This document shows, in pieces, positions 8,103 to 24,193 of a stretch of DNA of 64,000 bases; position 1 is the stretch's first letter; each line of letters opens with the position of its first letter. Source of the stretch: an uncultured delta proteobacterium (GTDB lineage: Bacteria > Desulfobacterota > Binatia > JACPRU01); the NCBI GenBank assembly GCA_963745025.1, contig CAVUWD010000018.1, positions 64,858-128,857 on the forward strand, read 5' to 3'. A program made the translations under genes and the position numbers. The notes under the pieces were generated by a model that had not been told where the DNA came from, did not search any database, and worked only from the letters and a program-made list of their open reading frames with translations.

Positions 8103-9521
8103 GTGAGCGACGAGCGGTCGTTCGACCTGGTGGTGATCGGCTCCGGACCCGCCGGCGAGAAGGGCGCGGCGCAGGCGGCCTATTTCGGCAAGCGCGTCGC
8201 CGTGGTCGAACGCCAGCCCGCCTTCGGCGGCGCAGCCGCGAACACCGGCACGCTGCCGTCGAAGACGCTGCGCGAGACCTCGCTGACGCTTTCGGGCTTT
8301 CGCAATCGCGGTCTCTACGGGGTCGACCTGTCGCTGCGCCGCCAGGCGACGGTCCGCGACCTGATGCGGCGCGAGGCGGTGATGGTTGCGACCGAGCGCG
8401 AGCGCATTCGCAAGAACCTCGAGCGCCATCAAGTCGAGGTCTTTCGCGGCGAGGCCTCGTTCGTCGATGCTCACACCGTGCGGGTGTCGCGCCCGAGCGA
8501 TGCGCCAATCGACCTTCACGCCGAAATCGTGCTGATCGCCACGGGCTCGAGCCCGCGTCGAGTGAGCCTCTTCCCCTTCGACGATCCTCGGGTCTTCGAC
8601 TCGGACGAGATCCTCAAGCTCGAGCGCGTACCGCGCTCGCTCGCGGTGGTCGGCGGCGGAGTGATCGGCGCGGAGTACGCCTCGACGTTCGCGGCGCTCG
8701 GGGTGGACGTCACGCTGATCGAGAGCCGCGACCGGCTGCTGCCGTTTCTCGACGGCGAGATCGCGGCGGCCCTGAAGCGGGGCATGGAGAACCTCGGCAT
8801 CCAATTCCGCATGCCGAGGAGCGTGGCCGGTTGTGACCCCGGCGCGGATTCGGTGACGTTGCGGCTCGAAGGCGGGGAGACGGTGGACGCCGACGCGGTC
8901 CTGGTGTCCGCGGGGCGCGTCAGCAATACGGCGTCGCTGAATCTCGAGGCGGCGGGAATCCGCTGCGGGGCGTATGGTCTCCTCGAAGTGGACGAACACT
9001 TCCGCACGTCGGCGCCGAGCGTCTACGCGGCGGGTGACGTCATCGGCTTTCCCGCGCTGGCGTCGACGTCGATGGAACAAGCGCGATTGGCGATGGTCCA
9101 CGCCTTCGACCTCGGGTACAAGAAGGCCCTGGCGGTGGTCTTGCCCTACGGCATCTACACGATTCCGGAAGTGTCGATGGCCGGGGACACCGAAGAATCG
9201 CTGGCAGGAAAGGGGATCGACTACGTGGTCGGCCGCGCGACCTACCAGCAGAATGCGCGCGGGCAGATCATCGGCGACCCCGAGGGCATGCTGAAGCTCT
9301 TGTTCGCGCAGAAGGACATGAGGCTCCTCGGCGTGCACGTGATCGGCGAGCAAGCTACGGAGCTCGTCCACGTCGGGCTCACGGTGATCCTCGCCGGCGC
9401 CGGCAACGATCTCTTCATCCAAACGTGCTACAATTATCCAACGCTCACCGAGATGTACAAATACGCCACCTACGATGCGATGGGGAAGCAAGACGCGGCC
9501 GCCGCGCTGAGCCGCGCCTGA
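8103..9521 (+). CDS. sthA: Soluble pyridine nucleotide transhydrogenase
   Basis: GSGPAGEKGA, NTGTLPSKTLRE, GFPALASTSMEQAR, GIYTIPEVS, YNYPTL. Confidence 0.92.
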   Translation: MSDERSFDLVVIGSGPAGEKGAAQAAYFGKRVAVVERQPAFGGAAANTGTLPSKTLRETSLTLSGFRNRGLYGVDLSLRRQATVRDLMRREAVMVATERERIRKNLERHQVEVFRGEASFVDAHTVRVSRPSDAPIDLHAEIVLIATGSSPRRVSLFPFDDPRVFDSDEILKLERVPRSLAVVGGGVIGAEYASTFAALGVDVTLIESRDRLLPFLDGEIAAALKRGMENLGIQFRMPRSVAGCDPGADSVTLRLEGGETVDADAVLVSAGRVSNTASLNLEAAGIRCGAYGLLEVDEHFRTSAPSVYAAGDVIGFPALASTSMEQARLAMVHAFDLGYKKALAVVLPYGIYTIPEVSMAGDTEESLAGKGIDYVVGRATYQQNARGQIIGDPEGMLKLLFAQKDMRLLGVHVIGEQATELVHVGLTVILAGAGNDLFIQTCYNYPTLTEMYKYATYDAMGKQDAAAALSRA

Positions 9522-9545: not shown

Positions 9546-10109
9546 ATGGCACGACTGCCGTACGTGACGCCCGAGAAGGCCTCTTCTCCTGAAGTCAAAC
9601 AGACCTTCGCGCAGCTGCCGACGGTGCTGAACGTCTTCAAGATGATGGCGCACGCCGAGACTACGTTCCGCCCGCTCGTACGGCTCGGCAGCGCGATCCT
9701 CGCGCAGCAGAAGCTCTCGGCGAAGATCCGCGAGCTGGCGATCCTCCGGGTCGCCGGTCTATCCGGCTGCCGCTACGAGTGGGTGCAGCATCTCTCGCTC
9801 GCTATGCTGATGGGCGCCACGCGCCTGCAGGTCGACGCGATCGAGAAGGGGGAGATTCACGCATCGTGCTTCGACGAGAGCGAGCAGCTTGCGCTCGAGC
9901 TTGCGACGGAGCTCACGCACGGCGTGCGGGGCTCCGACACCACCTTCGCACGGCTGCGCGAGTGCTTCTCGCCGCAGGAGATCGTCGAGCTGGTGCTCGC
10001 GATCGGGTATTACATGATGATCGTGCGGTTGATCGAGACGACGGGTGTCGAGATCGAGCCCCCCTCGGAGCAGGTCGCCAAGCAGGCCCGCGACTGGCGG
10101 CCGAAGTAG
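9546..10109 (+). CDS. Carboxymuconolactone decarboxylase/AhpD-like protein
   Basis: MARLPY, NVFKMMAH, RELAILRV..CRYEWVQH, IVELVLAIGYY. Confidence 0.9.
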   Translation: MARLPYVTPEKASSPEVKQTFAQLPTVLNVFKMMAHAETTFRPLVRLGSAILAQQKLSAKIRELAILRVAGLSGCRYEWVQHLSLAMLMGATRLQVDAIEKGEIHASCFDESEQLALELATELTHGVRGSDTTFARLRECFSPQEIVELVLAIGYYMMIVRLIETTGVEIEPPSEQVAKQARDWRPK

Positions 10110-13574: not shown

Positions 13575-15053
13575 TCACTCGCTGCGGCGAAACGAGTCGA
13601 GCGATACCGCGGGAAGATACAGGCCTTGTGGCGCTCGCTTCCACCAATCCCCCGTTGTGCGCCGCTCCGCGAGGCTCGTGAACGTGTACTGATAGAGCGC
13701 GGCGCGGATGTATTTGGGGGCATGGTCGGGGAACGGATCTCGCGCGAGCAGCGCCGTGACGTCCTTCGAGCCCTCGAGGAGGCGCAGCACGAAGGCGAGA
13801 AACCACGGATTCTGCTCGTAGCGGCCGAGCGCCGCGAACCACATCTGCCAGTCGAGCCGCGGCTGGTGGGGCTCGACGAACGACGGCGCTCGCGAGAGAT
13901 CACCGGCCTTCCACTTGAACTCGTACGGGCGCCATTCGCTCCGATCGTCGCTTCCCTCGACGATGATCTCGGGGCGGGTCGTCGTCATCACCGCGAAGAG
14001 GCCGTAGCCGTTGACGAGACGGAGCGGAGCCGCCACACGGCGAAACCAGAGAAGCGGCTTCGGCCAATCGAGCCCGAACGGCGAGAGCGTGAACATCTGC
14101 AGCACGCCGAGCAGGAGGACGGTGGAGGCGACGGGTGCGACGATCCATCGCGGCCACGCGATTCCGATCGACGTGCCGCCGGCGATTCTCCAGCGGCGAA
14201 TGCGCTGCGGCCACGCGGGGTCATCGAGCAGCAGCACGCAGAGCGCGATCGTCAACAGGTTGAAGAAGCAGTAGTTGCCGGTCGCGAGGATCAGCAGCTG
14301 CAGCGCGACGAACGCCGCGAACGCGAGCAGACGTGGGCCGCTCCCGCCCCAGATCAAACAAGGCGCGCCCAGCTCGATCGCGAACATCAACGCGCAGGAG
14401 ATCTCCTGGAGCCAGGCGGGCTGGAGATTCGCGTACCAGCCGATCCACGTGGGGAGAGGTTGCGTCCAGTAGTGGTACTCCAGCGCCGTCAGGTTGCGCC
14501 ACGCCGCGTCGCCGGAGAGGAGCTTCACCGCGCCGGAGCCGAACATCAGCCGGAAGAGTAGCCATCGGAAGAGCCAGACGATCGCCAAGGGCGGCGCCGC
14601 CTCGCGTGTCAGGCTCGGCCGGAGCTGGAGCGGCGCCAGGAAGATCGCGAGAAAGCCGGTCTCGAGAAGCAGGATGTCCCATTGGAAGGAGAGGAAGTCC
14701 TGGCCGATCGTCTCGAGCGAGAGGTAGGCGAGCCAAAGCCCTGCGAGGCAGGGAACGGGAGCGATGCCGGCGATGAGTAGCACCGCCAGCGCCGAGCCGG
14801 TGGCGCAGAGCGCATGCAGCATGCCATCGGTCGGATGGAGCCAGAAGAGCGTCGGCAGCCACCAGTAGCGCGACCGCCCGACGACGCCCGCCACTTCCTC
14901 GAGGTACGCACGCGCCGGCAGGATGCCGCCCGCGCCCACCAGACCGTCGACCTGTACCCAAAACGAGACGAACGCGATCAGGTAGATCGCGCCGAGAAGC
15001 CGCAGAAACAGCCAGCGGCCGAGGAGCTGTGAGGGCGCGCCCGGATCCTCTAT
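13575..15053 (-). CDS. Lipase maturation factor family protein (5' end uncertain)
   Basis: FQWDILLLETGF, HYWTQPLP, NGYGLFAVMT, HQPRLDWQMWFAAL; conserved-looking RWLFLRLLGAIYLIAF lies upstream of the first GTG (14939). Confidence 0.88.
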   Translation of the reverse strand: MEDPGAPSQLLGRWLFLRLLGAIYLIAFVSFWVQVDGLVGAGGILPARAYLEEVAGVVGRSRYWWLPTLFWLHPTDGMLHALCATGSALAVLLIAGIAPVPCLAGLWLAYLSLETIGQDFLSFQWDILLLETGFLAIFLAPLQLRPSLTREAAPPLAIVWLFRWLLFRLMFGSGAVKLLSGDAAWRNLTALEYHYWTQPLPTWIGWYANLQPAWLQEISCALMFAIELGAPCLIWGGSGPRLLAFAAFVALQLLILATGNYCFFNLLTIALCVLLLDDPAWPQRIRRWRIAGGTSIGIAWPRWIVAPVASTVLLLGVLQMFTLSPFGLDWPKPLLWFRRVAAPLRLVNGYGLFAVMTTTRPEIIVEGSDDRSEWRPYEFKWKAGDLSRAPSFVEPHQPRLDWQMWFAALGRYEQNPWFLAFVLRLLEGSKDVTALLARDPFPDHAPKYIRAALYQYTFTSLAERRTTGDWWKRAPQGLYLPAVSLDSFRRSE

Positions 15054-16201
15054 TTCAGAATCTCCTTGGCGATGGTGTTCAGCTGCATGTTCGAGGTGCC
15101 TTCGTAGATCTTGCCGATCTTCGCGTCGCGATAGAACTTCTCGACCGGGAAGTCCTTGGTGAAGCCGACGCCGCCGAAGACTTCCACCGCCATCGAGGCC
15201 ACGCGCTCGGCGACCTGCGACGAGTAGTACTTCGCCATCGCCGCTTCCTTGAGGAACGGCAGGTCGGCCTCACGCAGGCGCGCCGCGTTGTAGACCATCA
15301 AGCGCGCCGACTCGACCTCGATCGCCATGCGCGCGAGGTCGTGCTGCACCGCCTGGAAATGGGAGATCAATTGTCCGAACTGCTTTCGCTCGTTGGCATA
15401 GCTCCGCGCGGCCTCGTACGCACCGCGCGCTAGGCCGATCATCTGGGCACCGATGCCGATCCGTCCTTCGTTCAGCGTCTCGATCGCGACCTTGTAGCCT
15501 TGCCCCACCTGGCCGAGCACGTTGGCTCGTGGCACGCGGCAATCCTCGAGCAGGAGCTCGCACGTCGAGCTCGCGCGGATGCCGAGCTTGTCCTCCTTCT
15601 TGCCGACCGAGAAGCCGGGGAAGGAGCGCTCGACGAGAAACGTGGTGATGCCCCGGTAGCCCTTGGCCGGGTCCACGGTCGCGTGCAGTACGAAGAGGCC
15701 GGCCTCGGCGCCGTTGGTGATCCAGAGCTTGCGCCCGTTCAGCCGGTACGAGTCGCCGTCGAGCGTGGCGCGCGTAGCGAGCGCGAACGCGTCGCTGCCC
15801 GATCCGGCCTCGGAGAGCGCGTACGCCCCGACCGTGTCGCGCGCCAGCTTCGGCAGGTATTGCCGCTTCTGTTCATCGGTCGCCCAGCGCAGCAGCGCGT
15901 TGTTGACGAGCGTATTCTGCACGTCGACGAAAGCGCTGACCGAGGGATCGACGCGCGAGAGCTCCTCGATGGCGAGGATCGACATGAAGAACGACGCGCC
16001 GGCTCCGCCGTGCTCCTCCGGAATCTCGATCCCCATGACGCCGATGTCGAAGATCTCTTTGATCAGCGCGCGATCGAGCGAGCCGTCACGATCCATCTTC
16101 TCGACCCGCGGGCGCACCTTCTCTTCAGCGAACCCCCGCACCATCTCCTGGAACTGACACTCCTCCTCGCCGAGCGTCGTCAGCGCCTTCGTGGAGCTCA
16201 T
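15050..16201 (-). CDS. Acyl-CoA dehydrogenase (short/branched-chain type)
   Basis: YALSEAGSGSDAF, KLGIRASSTCEL, LNEGRIGIGAQ, IYEGTSNMQL. Confidence 0.95.
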   Translation of the reverse strand: MSSTKALTTLGEEECQFQEMVRGFAEEKVRPRVEKMDRDGSLDRALIKEIFDIGVMGIEIPEEHGGAGASFFMSILAIEELSRVDPSVSAFVDVQNTLVNNALLRWATDEQKRQYLPKLARDTVGAYALSEAGSGSDAFALATRATLDGDSYRLNGRKLWITNGAEAGLFVLHATVDPAKGYRGITTFLVERSFPGFSVGKKEDKLGIRASSTCELLLEDCRVPRANVLGQVGQGYKVAIETLNEGRIGIGAQMIGLARGAYEAARSYANERKQFGQLISHFQAVQHDLARMAIEVESARLMVYNAARLREADLPFLKEAAMAKYYSSQVAERVASMAVEVFGGVGFTKDFPVEKFYRDAKIGKIYEGTSNMQLNTIAKEILK

Positions 16202-16342
16202 TTCGTTCCTCTCTCCTTCTTCGGCATTCGGCTCTCGGCCATCGGCCAGGACGTCGCGGTGCCGAACGCCGACAGCCGATCGCCGATAACCTCCTATCGA
16301 ATCCGCCGCGCGCGCGCCACCGCGAGCCCGGGGCTTCGTCGG

Positions 16343-16570
16343 CTAGAGGCCGAGCAGCGCTTCGAGCTTCGGCCGATCGAAGCCGACGACCGGCTGCTCG
16401 TCGACCAGGATCACCGGCGTAGCGCGGAAGCCCATGTCGAGAAGCTCCTTCCGCGCCGCAGGATCCGTCGCGACCACTCGCTCGGTGAAGGCGATTCCTT
16501 TTTGCGAAAGAAACTCTTTCGCTTGCTTGCAGGGAGCTCAGCCGGGGTTCGTGTAGACGACGACGTTCAT
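16343..16570 (-). CDS. Glutaredoxin/NrdH-like redoxin, probable selenoprotein (U-A-P-C)
   Basis: RBS GGAGG, then MNVVVYTNPG(TGA)APCKQAKEFLSQKGIAFTERVVATDPAARKELLDMGFRATPVILVDEQPVVGFDRPKLEALLGL*; the TGA (16538-16540) occupies the first Cys position of CxxC. Confidence 0.88.
16504..16522 (-). promoter_or_regulatory. Candidate bacterial SECIS hairpin
   Basis: GCGAAAGA-GUU-UCUUUCGC begins 15 nt after the UGA, with G in the apical loop. Confidence 0.65.
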
Positions 16571-16636
16571 GACTTCCTCCCGTCTTCAGGATATGGGCGC
16601 AAACGTATAGACGGAAGGGGCACGGAGGTGACGCCA

Positions 16637-17842
16637 ATGGGACCGCTTTCGGGAATCAAGGTCGTGGAGATGGGGATCTTCGTCGCCGGCCCGGCCACCG
16701 CGGCGGTGCTCGGCGACTGGGGCGCCGACGTCGTCAAGATCGAGAACCCGGCCGGCGGCGACCCGATCCGAGCGCTCGTGTCGCTCGGCCTAGTGCCGGT
16801 CGAGCCCGACGTCAACAGCGCCCTCGAGCTCGAGAACCGCAACAAGCGAAGCGTCGCCGTCGACATCACCAAGCCCGAGGGTCGCGACGTCGTGCTCCGC
16901 CTGCTCCGCGACGCGGATGTCTTCGTGAGCAACCTCCGTGCCGGGGCGCTGGAGCGCGCCGGGCTCGCCTACGAGGACGTCAAGAACGTCAATCCGCGCA
17001 TCATCTATGCGACGCTCAGCGGCTACGGCACCCGCGGCCCCGACAAGGATCGCGCGGCCTTCGACTACGCGGCCTTCTGGGCGCGGACGGGCGCGATGGC
17101 AGCGCTCGCCGAGCCCGATCGGCCGCCGCCCACGCAACGCCCGGCGATGGGCGATCATCCAGCCGGCCTCCAGCTCGCGGGCGCGGTGTCCGCCGCGCTC
17201 TTCCACCGTGAGCGCACCGGCGAAGGCCAGGCGATCCATCTCTCGCTCTTTCAGTCGGGCCTGTGGATGATGGCGAGCGACATCGAGATCGCGCTCGTCA
17301 TGGGAGTCGGCCACTCGCCGACCGGACGGCTGGTACCGAACCCGCTGTGGAACCACTACCAGGCGAAGGACGGGAAGTGGTTCCATCTGGTGATGATCCA
17401 GGCGGATCGCTTCTGGCCGAAGTTCTGCGCGGCGATCGGGGAGCCGGAGCTCGCCGAGGACGAGCGGTACGACGGCGTCGTCAAGCGGGGACGCCACGCG
17501 CAGGCACTGATCGACAAGCTCGATCGCGTGTTCGCGACGAAGAACCGGGACGAGTGGGCCGCGATTTTCGACCGCTACGAGCTCATCTGGGCGCCCGTGC
17601 AAACCGTGCTCGAGGCGTCACGCGATCCGCAAGCGCTCGCGCTCGGGATGTACGAGACGCTGCAGCATCGGAGCGGTCGCGAGATCTCTCTGGTGCGAAC
17701 GCCGGTGGAGTTCGGGGCCACGCCCGCCACCATCCGCTGCGGCGCGCCGGAGCTCGGCGAGCATACCGAGGAGGTGCTACTCGCTCACGGCTACGGCTGG
17801 GAGGACATCGCCAATCTGCGGGAGAAGGGAGTGTTCGGGTGA
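16637..17842 (+). CDS. CaiB/BaiF family (class III) CoA-transferase
   Basis: GPLSGIKVVE, LGDWGADVVKIE, NRNKRS, APELGEHT. Confidence 0.93.
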   Translation: MGPLSGIKVVEMGIFVAGPATAAVLGDWGADVVKIENPAGGDPIRALVSLGLVPVEPDVNSALELENRNKRSVAVDITKPEGRDVVLRLLRDADVFVSNLRAGALERAGLAYEDVKNVNPRIIYATLSGYGTRGPDKDRAAFDYAAFWARTGAMAALAEPDRPPPTQRPAMGDHPAGLQLAGAVSAALFHRERTGEGQAIHLSLFQSGLWMMASDIEIALVMGVGHSPTGRLVPNPLWNHYQAKDGKWFHLVMIQADRFWPKFCAAIGEPELAEDERYDGVVKRGRHAQALIDKLDRVFATKNRDEWAAIFDRYELIWAPVQTVLEASRDPQALALGMYETLQHRSGREISLVRTPVEFGATPATIRCGAPELGEHTEEVLLAHGYGWEDIANLREKGVFG

Positions 17843-20918: not shown

Positions 20919-21287
20919 CTATGCGGCTCGCTTCCGGCTCCTAGCGGCTTCGCGGAACTCAACCCTGATCTCCGCCCCGAGTGCGACCGCCGCGCGCACC
21001 AGGGTCCGCAGCTCGATGTTCCGCGGCGTCGTCGACTCGAGCTGCGCGATGAGCGGCTGGCTCACGCCCATGAGATTCGCGAGCTGCTTCTGAGTGATCC
21101 CGCGCTTCTCGCGAAGACGGATCAGGTCGTTCCGGATGAGGATCCTCGCCAGCATCTCGTCGACTCGTCGTCGGGCCGCAGCATTGTCCTTGGTGGCGAG
21201 CGCGTCGAGCCGCTGGATCACGTCGCCGGCGGTCCGAGCCTTCGTTCGGGAAGATCGCTTCTTGTTCGTCATGGTGTTTCCTCTCAC
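20919..21287 (-). CDS. XRE HTH antitoxin (HigA-like)
   Basis: LIRLREKRGITQKQLANLMGVSQPLIAQLES; directly downstream of a RelE-like gene. Confidence 0.88.
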   Translation of the reverse strand: MRGNTMTNKKRSSRTKARTAGDVIQRLDALATKDNAAARRRVDEMLARILIRNDLIRLREKRGITQKQLANLMGVSQPLIAQLESTTPRNIELRTLVRAAVALGAEIRVEFREAARSRKRAA

Positions 21288-21652
21288 TCGACGCTGTCCA
21301 TGCGGCGTCGCACTCGTTTCAGCACATCGGCCGGGATGTCCATCCGCTTTTTCATGATGCCCTCGAGGAGCACGATCCGACGACCTCGGAAGCAGTAGAA
21401 AATTCGTATCTGCGCCCCACGAAGCTCGTAGAGGCCTCCGCCGAGGTTCTTCGCGTTCGGCATCCCCAGGTCCGCGCCGCGCTCACCCAGCGCCCTCACC
21501 AGCACCGCCGCTTCCTCCCGGTCGCGTTGGGCGAGCTCCGCAGCAAACGTCGTGATCGCGAGGTCGCCACGGGCGCTCTGAAATTCCTCAACCGTCCAGG
21601 ATTCGCGCTCCTTCTCCGCCGCCTTCTTCTTGTCCCGGCGTCCCTTCGCCAC
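21284..21652 (-). CDS. RelE/ParE (Gp49-like) toxin
   Basis: GMPNAKNLGGGLYELR..IRIFYCF..IVLLEGIMKK. Confidence 0.88.
   Translation of the reverse strand: MAKGRRDKKKAAEKERESWTVEEFQSARGDLAITTFAAELAQRDREEAAVLVRALGERGADLGMPNAKNLGGGLYELRGAQIRIFYCFRGRRIVLLEGIMKKRMDIPADVLKRVRRRMDSVE

Positions 21653-22969: not shown

Positions 22970-24193
<1,224 letters not shown>

Follow-up and report, generated by a model that had tools for sequence, protein, structure and literature searches.

Glutaredoxins of Pfam family PF00462 with a UxxC motif, in which U is selenocysteine (Sec), are counted among the experimentally verified prokaryotic selenoproteins in review tables (PMC13188914, PMC9312934), and the tables of a 2006 survey list Sec-containing glutaredoxins (Sec-Grx) in Geobacter sulfurreducens, Alkaliphilus metalliredigenes, and Moorella thermoacetica (PMC1794560). 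Among the described systems, the closest to the protein analyzed here is glutaredoxin 1 (Grx1) of Clostridium oremlandii (Clostridium sp. OhILAs). According to PMC7642778, this protein natively contains Sec in a U(or C)PXC motif, and its dithiol and monothiol structures were solved with Cys in place of the catalytic Sec; the mutants named in PMC4479559 are U13C and U13C/C16S. In the same two papers, the proposed substrate of Clostridium Grx1 is a Sec-containing MsrA (PMC7642778, PMC4479559).

Here, we describe a gene, referred to as grx, at 16343..16570 on the minus strand of the window, i.e., the whole 64,000-nt stretch of DNA that was analyzed. Of the properties expected of a member of the bacterial Sec-Grx family (PF00462, UxxC), we found the domain, alignment of an in-frame TGA with the catalytic position, a TGA in orthologs, a SECIS-like hairpin, and the Sec decoding machinery. 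Based on these sequence data, we estimate with a probability of about 95% that the TGA is a Sec codon and that the 75-residue product of grx is a true selenoprotein, a thiol/selenol-disulfide oxidoreductase with the glutaredoxin fold.

The grx gene and its predicted product

The grx gene extends from an ATG at 16570-16568 to a TAG at 16345-16343 on the minus strand and is preceded by a Shine-Dalgarno core, GGAGG (16576..16580, minus strand), which direct reading places at a 5-nt spacing from the ATG. Ten sense codons (MNVVVYTNPG) separate the ATG from the TGA, which is codon 11 (16538..16540, minus strand), and the body downstream of the TGA is intact, with APC, KEFLSQKGI, ATPVILV, and VVGFD followed by the TAG. 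With TGA translated as U, the product reads MNVVVYTNPGUAPCKQAKEFLSQKGIAFTERVVATDPAARKELLDMGFRATPVILVDEQPVVGFDRPKLEALLGL and has the active site U11-A-P-C14. A sequence-only reading of this DNA had previously described a ribosome-binding site (RBS), an ATG, ten codons, an in-frame TGA at the nucleophilic position, and a glutaredoxin body (KEFLSQKGI, ATPVILV, GFD) ending in TAG, and we found each of these elements in place on the minus strand. That reading had also remarked that the gene is absent from the list of open reading frames (ORFs); indeed, only a 44-aa stub with a GTG start (16343..16477, minus strand) is called in this frame. Because another in-frame TGA located 7 codons upstream of the ATG shuts the frame, this ATG is the sole plausible start codon. 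Translation of the plus strand over 16343-16570 gave no meaningful protein and was rejected, which places the gene on the minus strand.

Using Pfam, we found that the product (with U replaced by C) matches Glutaredoxin PF00462 with 57 bits (cut-off 22.9; E = 2.3e-15) over residues 3-59, and because this match runs across the TGA position, the frame is more than a chance occurrence. The best NCBIfam models were GlrX_YruB (TIGR02196, 73.6 bits versus a curated cut-off of 88.55), NrdH (TIGR02194, 56.6 versus 85.75), UXX-star (NF041212, 52.6 versus 66), and glutaredoxin 3 (Grx3), the classical glutathione (GSH)-dependent form (TIGR02181, 48.2 versus 90); all of these scores are below the cut-offs, and GlrX_YruB is therefore the nearest model and not a family assignment. 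The best match among solved structures was 7c10_A ("Glutaredoxin"; E = 1.9e-21), which aligns over residues 2-75 with 41 of 74 residues identical (~55%) and on which positions 11 and 14 of the product fall on Cys13 and Cys16; the sister entries 7c12 and 7c13 read CPHS. With a solved structure at ~55% identity, the glutaredoxin fold of the product is not in doubt. The identification of 7c10 as C. oremlandii Grx1 is based on the single occurrence of "7c10" in PMC7642778 and on the matching C13/C16 numbering; the U13/C16 mutant numbering in PMC4479559 agrees with 7c10 and 7c12. Judged by these comparisons, grx is placed in the Grx1/YruB-like branch and not in the classical Grx3-like branch.

By homology to C. 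oremlandii Grx1 (U13/C16), Sec11 of the U-A-P-C motif would be the nucleophile. It would attack a substrate disulfide or a sulfenic or selenenic species to form a mixed selenenylsulfide, which Cys14 would resolve to an intramolecular Se-S bond, and a cellular reductant would then reduce this bond and recycle the product. One possibility is that the product is an NrdH/YruB-type redoxin that is recycled by thioredoxin reductase and not by glutathione, i.e., that it is small-thioredoxin-like despite its glutaredoxin fold. This is in agreement with the order of the NCBIfam scores, in which GlrX_YruB and NrdH precede Grx3, with matches of the product to PDB chains named "thioredoxin" (3zij, E = 1.8e-12) and to NrdH, with ATPV and VVGFD in place of the TVPQIF and GG of the classical Grx homologs retrieved here, and with a thioredoxin reductase in the genome that scores above the cut-off (394.8 bits). 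However, the same NCBIfam scores all lie under the curated cut-offs, a glutathione synthetase in the genome also scores above the cut-off (384 bits), and the closest characterized relative, Clostridium Grx1, is a glutaredoxin for which GSH is the model reductant (PMC7642778, PMC4479559). Weighing these data, we hold recycling by thioredoxin reductase as a tentative proposal to which we give somewhat less than even odds.

A pyridine-nucleotide disulfide oxidoreductase encoded in the window (8103-9521) was considered as a dedicated reductase of the grx product and rejected; it scores above the equivalog cut-off for the transhydrogenase SthA.

Genomic neighborhood of grx

On the same strand, 141 nt downstream of grx, lies a gene for an acyl-CoA dehydrogenase (15050..16201, minus strand; PF00441, PF02771, and PF02770; no NCBIfam equivalog is reached), which is followed by a gene for a membrane protein of the lipase maturation factor (LMF1) family (13575..14939, minus strand; PF06762, 188 bits; PF25179, 180 bits). 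Both had been named as downstream neighbors in the sequence-only reading, and Pfam bears this out. A divergent gene for a CoA-transferase family III protein (16637..17842, plus strand; PF02515, 368 bits) begins 66 nt from the grx ATG. In a scan for promoters and terminators, no promoter-like site was found, and no terminator-like site was found on the minus strand between grx and the acyl-CoA dehydrogenase gene; the sole terminator-like site of the scan is on the plus strand inside grx and is not informative. Cotranscription of grx with the acyl-CoA dehydrogenase and LMF1-like genes is possible.

Whether grx is also a functional member of an operon with these two genes can be judged from its relatives. 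The common strand, the 141-nt gap, and the lack of a minus-strand terminator-like site in the scan would fit such an operon, and a contig from a ~98% relative has the same gene arrangement as the window. However, when we compared 147 of the 190 long ORFs located within ~1.5 kb of homologs with Pfam, covering 15 of 20 loci, an acyl-CoA dehydrogenase or LMF1 domain was found near the grx homolog at none of the 15 loci. The closest ortholog (G005; 80% identity, same family) sits between genes for a citrate synthase and a methyltransferase, and at four loci of family f2, the grx homolog lies beside a peptidase M28 gene together with isochorismatase, dienelactone hydrolase, or SDR genes. Also, in another genome of the same family (G006), 123 nt separate the acyl-CoA dehydrogenase gene from the CoA-transferase gene, and no grx lies between them.

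The most direct comparison is with a genome of the same genus (G001), in which the locus is syntenic at 85-90% identity and the acyl-CoA dehydrogenase gene is kept at 90%, while grx has decayed. The remnant (L140:1350-1700, G001:C24, aligned to window 16150-16640) has a weakened RBS, lacks 1 nt just before the TGA, and has lost ~145 nt of the body; its TGA and the hairpin sequence described below are still recognizable. selA scored above the cut-off in all five genomes checked, including G001. Because G001 lost grx and kept selA, the loss is gene specific, and grx is dispensable. As the linkage is not conserved, functional coupling of grx with its neighbors should not be inferred, and we consider membership in a functional operon unlikely. 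A more specific scenario, in which the Sec-Grx gene in this genus was inserted between the CoA-transferase gene and the acyl-CoA dehydrogenase/LMF1-like pair, is cotranscribed with this pair, and provides a dedicated selenol reductant for the LMF1-family protein or the flavoenzyme, is in our view very improbable. Eukaryotic LMF1 is linked to endoplasmic reticulum (ER) redox homeostasis, and if this scenario were true, it would provide the first functional handle on bacterial LMF1 homologs. Instead, grx appears to be a free-standing, movable, and dispensable accessory redoxin gene outside any conserved operon.

We note several other genes in the window. The protein encoded at 13575-14939 (minus strand) is a bacterial homolog of eukaryotic lipase maturation factor 1, with LMF1 and LMF1_C domains at ~180-188 bits; no NCBIfam match was found for it. 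At 20919-21652 (minus strand), a Gp49-like (DUF891) gene adjoins an HTH_3 gene, and the two resemble a toxin-antitoxin pair of the HigB/HigA type. Two carboxymuconolactone-decarboxylase (AhpD-like, CMD) domains are encoded at 9546-10109 (plus strand) and 23021-24193 (plus strand), one of them fused to an aldo/keto reductase.

Conservation and decoding of the TGA

To compare the TGA among homologs, we searched 61 related genomes with in-frame stops read through and counted. Ten of the 11 best non-self matches (E = 3e-35 to 8e-16; protein identity 45-80%) have one in-frame TGA each, and the eleventh, in G046, has no TGA and is a Cys form (QDRCPAC). In a sample of 401 genomes evenly drawn from the phylum, 42 had a match at E ≤ 1e-12, and one TGA was present in 35 of the 48 matches listed; i.e., among the matches listed for the sampled genomes, the Sec form of the grx subfamily is commoner than the Cys form. 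In the residue-11 column, the 67 extracted loci have U (40 loci) or C (27 loci), and a set of 48 named public loci has U in 15, C in 31, and R in 1, with 1 unaligned. The U loci of the named set derive from metagenome-assembled genomes (MAGs) titled Candidatus Binatota/Binatia, Acidobacteriota (including Terriglobia and Vicinamibacterales), and Chloroflexota/Chloroflexia and from one titled Bacillota, and many of the C loci are from Saccharibacteria; the closest named record (80% identity) is from a Candidatus Binatota MAG.

Protein similarity among the homologs continues upstream of the TGA (VVVYTxPG-U), from which it follows that translation must begin at the ATG and cross the TGA. The first active-site Cys aligns to the TGA column in G046, in the 31 named C loci, in PDB entry 7c10 (Cys13), and in the genome's own Cys paralog on contig C12 (TPLCAPC). 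Cys-containing homologs that align to the TGA, which the sequence-only reading had proposed to look for, therefore exist, and its reservation that relatives might lack a TGA at this position is answered by the 10 of the 11 best non-self matches that have one.

Additional DNA copies were present in public metagenomes. Run X2 contains a 210-nt contig with no difference from the window over 16370-16579, and run X1 contains a 1,428-nt contig that spans 16100-16800 at ~98% identity; both keep the TGA, with the reservation that X1 or X2 may be the source sample of the window itself. The only change near the active site in the X1 contig is 16535 A>G, which is synonymous (GCT to GCC) in codon 12. Thus, TGC or TGT in place of TGA, which had been named beforehand as evidence against Sec, was not seen in these two assemblies. 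Run X10 contained short partial pieces only, and coverage in the RNA run X15 was confined to 16636-16800, outside grx.

In public protein collections, we identified 157 matches at E ≤ 1e-8. Most of the 120 listed are 58-66 aa long and correspond to 75-84% of the query. Among 12 entries that were read, 7 start just after the TGA, 1 is the 44-aa stub of the window (P0007), and 4 are full-length entries with W at the Sec position (QPGWGPC); the entries of the W or post-TGA-fragment type are P0004, P0005, P0006, and P0008 and P0003, P0009, P0010, P0036, P0043, P0066, and P0120. The post-TGA fragments lack the active site. Because the proteins are stored truncated or with TGA translated as W, counts of the selenoproteome in soil and sediment lineages (MAGs titled Binatota, Acidobacteriota, and Chloroflexota) are likely too low, and the practical value of the grx finding lies in annotation.

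The fragments illustrate that gene callers treat the TGA as a stop, in the window as well as in most relatives, and this could be taken to mean that the TGA is a real stop in a pseudogene, the result of a recent nonsense mutation, or an assembly error and that the full-length protein is not made; the decayed copy in G001 shows that loss of grx does occur within the genus. However, the TGA is kept in the same column in dozens of genomes from several phyla, with similarity on both sides, as well as in the two public assemblies, and the true pseudogene in G001, with its frameshift, weakened RBS, and ~145-nt deletion, is quite unlike grx in the window. We therefore regard a real stop as highly improbable compared to a Sec codon.

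Profile searches of the genome identified selD (385 bits; curated cut-off 125), selB (397 bits; cut-off 242), and selA (571 bits; cut-off 268) side by side in one cluster (G000:C20:20417-25012), and ARAGORN identified tRNA-SeC(tca) on contig C15 among 52 tRNAs. These data support the expectation of the sequence-only reading that the organism has selABCD. They come with the caveat that the sel genes are on contigs other than that of the window (C18), in a bin of 20 contigs and 5.65 Mb with an estimated completeness of 92.65% and contamination of 7.6%; the GC content is 64-67% in all 20 contigs, and this uniform composition gives no grounds to split C18 from C15 and C20. The selD gene has one in-frame TGA of its own, in the loop ...KAAGUAAKLGP... 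(G-U-AAK), and SelD of this genome is a selenoprotein too. The grx gene would add one more thiol-oxidoreductase selenoprotein to an organism with a Sec-containing SelD. TGA is the stop codon of seven of the eight confident neighboring genes, and none of the eight contains an internal TGA; as TGA is an ordinary stop nearby, there is no general reassignment of TGA in the genome.

In bacteria, the SECIS element is a stem-loop a short distance 3' of the UGA, and its apical loop contains a conserved G. Based on folds, covariation, RNAalifold, and codon use, we identified a SECIS-like hairpin, GCGAAAGA-GUU-UCUUUCGC, with a stem of 7-8 bp in grx (16504..16522, minus strand). It begins 15 nt past the UGA, within the codons for A-K-E-F-L-S-Q, and is present in both the MFE and the centroid folds of the window sequence. 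In a single-sequence fold of a 76-nt region, stability was no greater than that of shuffles (z = -0.11), and support for the hairpin therefore rests on comparative analysis. For this analysis, we used a gap-free alignment of 66 nt around the TGA from 36 Sec-form loci, from which all 27 C rows were dropped together with 4 U rows scoring <140 versus the query, i.e., L031 (a fused form) and L050-L052 (classical Grx3-like forms).

In this alignment, 92.0% of the 288 cells of an 8-pair helix are standard pairs, compared to a shuffled mean of 81.0%, and in a control in which the 3' partner was slid by 1-3 columns, 35-72% of the cells were paired. Both-sided changes occur at four of the eight pairs (21 cells); among the compensatory changes, C-G is replaced by A-U at pair 26/42, and A-U by U-A, C-G, or G-C at pair 29/39. 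The observed covariation score was reached by none of 500 shuffles, a test that is inflated by the relatedness of the sequences. RNAalifold independently returned the same helix with 7 pairs and a 5-nt loop, and G33 and U34 in the loop are invariant in all 36 Sec-form sequences. Thus, in its distance of 15 nt from the UGA, its loop G, and its stem with four compensatory pairs, the grx hairpin matches a bacterial SECIS element. An Rfam scan of 16250-16650 with E up to 10 returned no SECIS family and only chance-level matches to Actino-pnp and Zeta-pan.

Codon use was also constrained. Downstream of the TGA, third-codon entropy is 0.72 bits inside the helix (6 positions) versus 1.57 bits outside (13 positions), and two third-codon positions within the helix (columns 27 and 33) have an invariant G. 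The hairpin codons of grx in the window include AAA, TTT, and CTT, which in six neighboring genes account for 8 of 86 Lys, 11 of 98 Phe, and 12 of 250 Leu codons, respectively. Low synonymous entropy together with locally rare codons points to selection on the hairpin RNA in addition to the peptide, and the grx hairpin would thus be a clear case of an RNA signal that restricts codon choice as well as protein sequence.

Each of the 15 U loci of the named set has the GU loop and 6-7 of 7 pairs, whereas all 31 C loci have at most 5 of 7 pairs, and 30 of them have at most 3. Among the 27 Cys-form loci from the genome searches, 5 (L022, L057, L065, L072, and L073) keep 6-7 of 7 pairs; the GU loop is kept in three of these, and the loop G is gone in L022 (G046:C5) and L065. 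All five are near relatives of Sec forms, with KEFLSQ, and may be read as cases in which Sec was recently replaced by Cys and the hairpin remained as a fossil. Because the hairpin is kept in these Cys forms, part of its conservation reflects shared ancestry and the conserved KEFLSQ peptide. This highly uniform hairpin in the KEFLSQ codons offers a simple and specific search key for the grx subfamily. As in bacterial Sec decoding generally, SelB with Sec-tRNA(Sec) would bind the hairpin 15 nt downstream of UGA11, and Sec would be inserted.

Insertion of a standard residue (Trp, Cys, or Gly) at the UGA, through an alternative code or near-cognate suppression, would agree with the four full-length database entries with W, but these are translation-table artifacts of TGA-bearing genes. 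In addition, the use of TGA as a stop in seven of the eight confident neighboring genes speaks against genome-wide reassignment, Trp would abolish an active site at a position that is the catalytic Cys in Cys homologs, the genome has the complete Sec pathway, and a conserved hairpin lies at SECIS distance. We give this reading as little credence as a real stop.

Other Sec redoxins were observed among the homologs. L053 (G096:C171) has Sec without a resolving Cys (PGULFS; U-L-F-S), i.e., a monoselenol form, and genes for an AhpC/TSA peroxiredoxin and an alkylmercury lyase (MerB) fragment are nearby. L046 (G008:C137:13115-16339; gene at ~1492-1725) is a second Sec-Grx paralog (SATGUASC) in an arsenic-resistance-like cluster, in which the order is ArsR-type regulator, unassigned ORF, Sec-Grx, low-molecular-weight phosphatase/ArsC-type protein, and SBF/Acr3-type transporter; this arrangement suggests that the L046 Sec-redoxin serves the arsenate reductase. 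In L047 (1492-2244) and also in L048, L049, and L031, an N-terminal Sec-glutaredoxin (YRPGUFTC) is fused to a C-terminal DinB_2/DinB domain in a protein of ~250 aa, a fusion that Pfam confirmed in L047 only; the DinB-fused forms carry the same hairpin as grx.

Comparison with known Sec-containing redoxins

The proposal of the sequence-only reading that grx encodes a UxxC Sec protein with a glutaredoxin fold is supported by homology to the Sec-Grx family, the conserved TGA, and the hairpin with covariation. With the catalogued bacterial glutaredoxin selenoproteins, grx shares PF00462, the UxxC motif, and the position of Sec. Classical Grx3-like Sec forms also occur in related genomes (L050-L052; TDYUGFC...TVPQIF...GG) but belong to another subfamily and lack the grx hairpin in the same register, with 2-3 of 7 pairs. 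YruB-family proteins and NrdH resemble grx in that they are small single-domain CxxC redoxins of ~75 residues that match end to end; unlike in these proteins, the first Cys is replaced by Sec in grx, and the scores are under the cut-offs. The UXX-star selenoproteins (NF041212, NF041114, NF041211, and NF047338) contain Sec and have a glutaredoxin-like fold, but their scores of 26-53 bits are all below the cut-offs, and the matches cover the fold generally (model positions 1-65) with nothing specific to the placement of Sec. The name UXX-star presumably refers to Sec located three residues from the C terminus, whereas Sec in grx is residue 11 of 75.

In Clostridium, the proposed partner is a Sec-containing MsrA, whereas both MsrA genes of this genome are of the Cys type. 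A "tandem Sec" pairing of the grx product with a Sec-MsrA was considered and rejected, as neither of the two MsrA genes has an in-frame TGA or other in-frame stop, and the Clostridium pairing therefore does not carry over.

C. oremlandii Grx1 (U13-P-H-C16) differs from the grx product in being from another phylum and in its active-site dipeptide, which is P-H in Grx1 and A-P in grx. Otherwise, the two proteins are alike: they align over their full length with ~55% identity, are of the same size, place Sec on Sec and resolving Cys on resolving Cys, and have in common the C-terminal VVGFDR-K-E-LLGL and the KEFLS peptide over the hairpin. The family to which grx is assigned is already known and experimentally verified, and its identification here is a sound correction of annotation and not a discovery.
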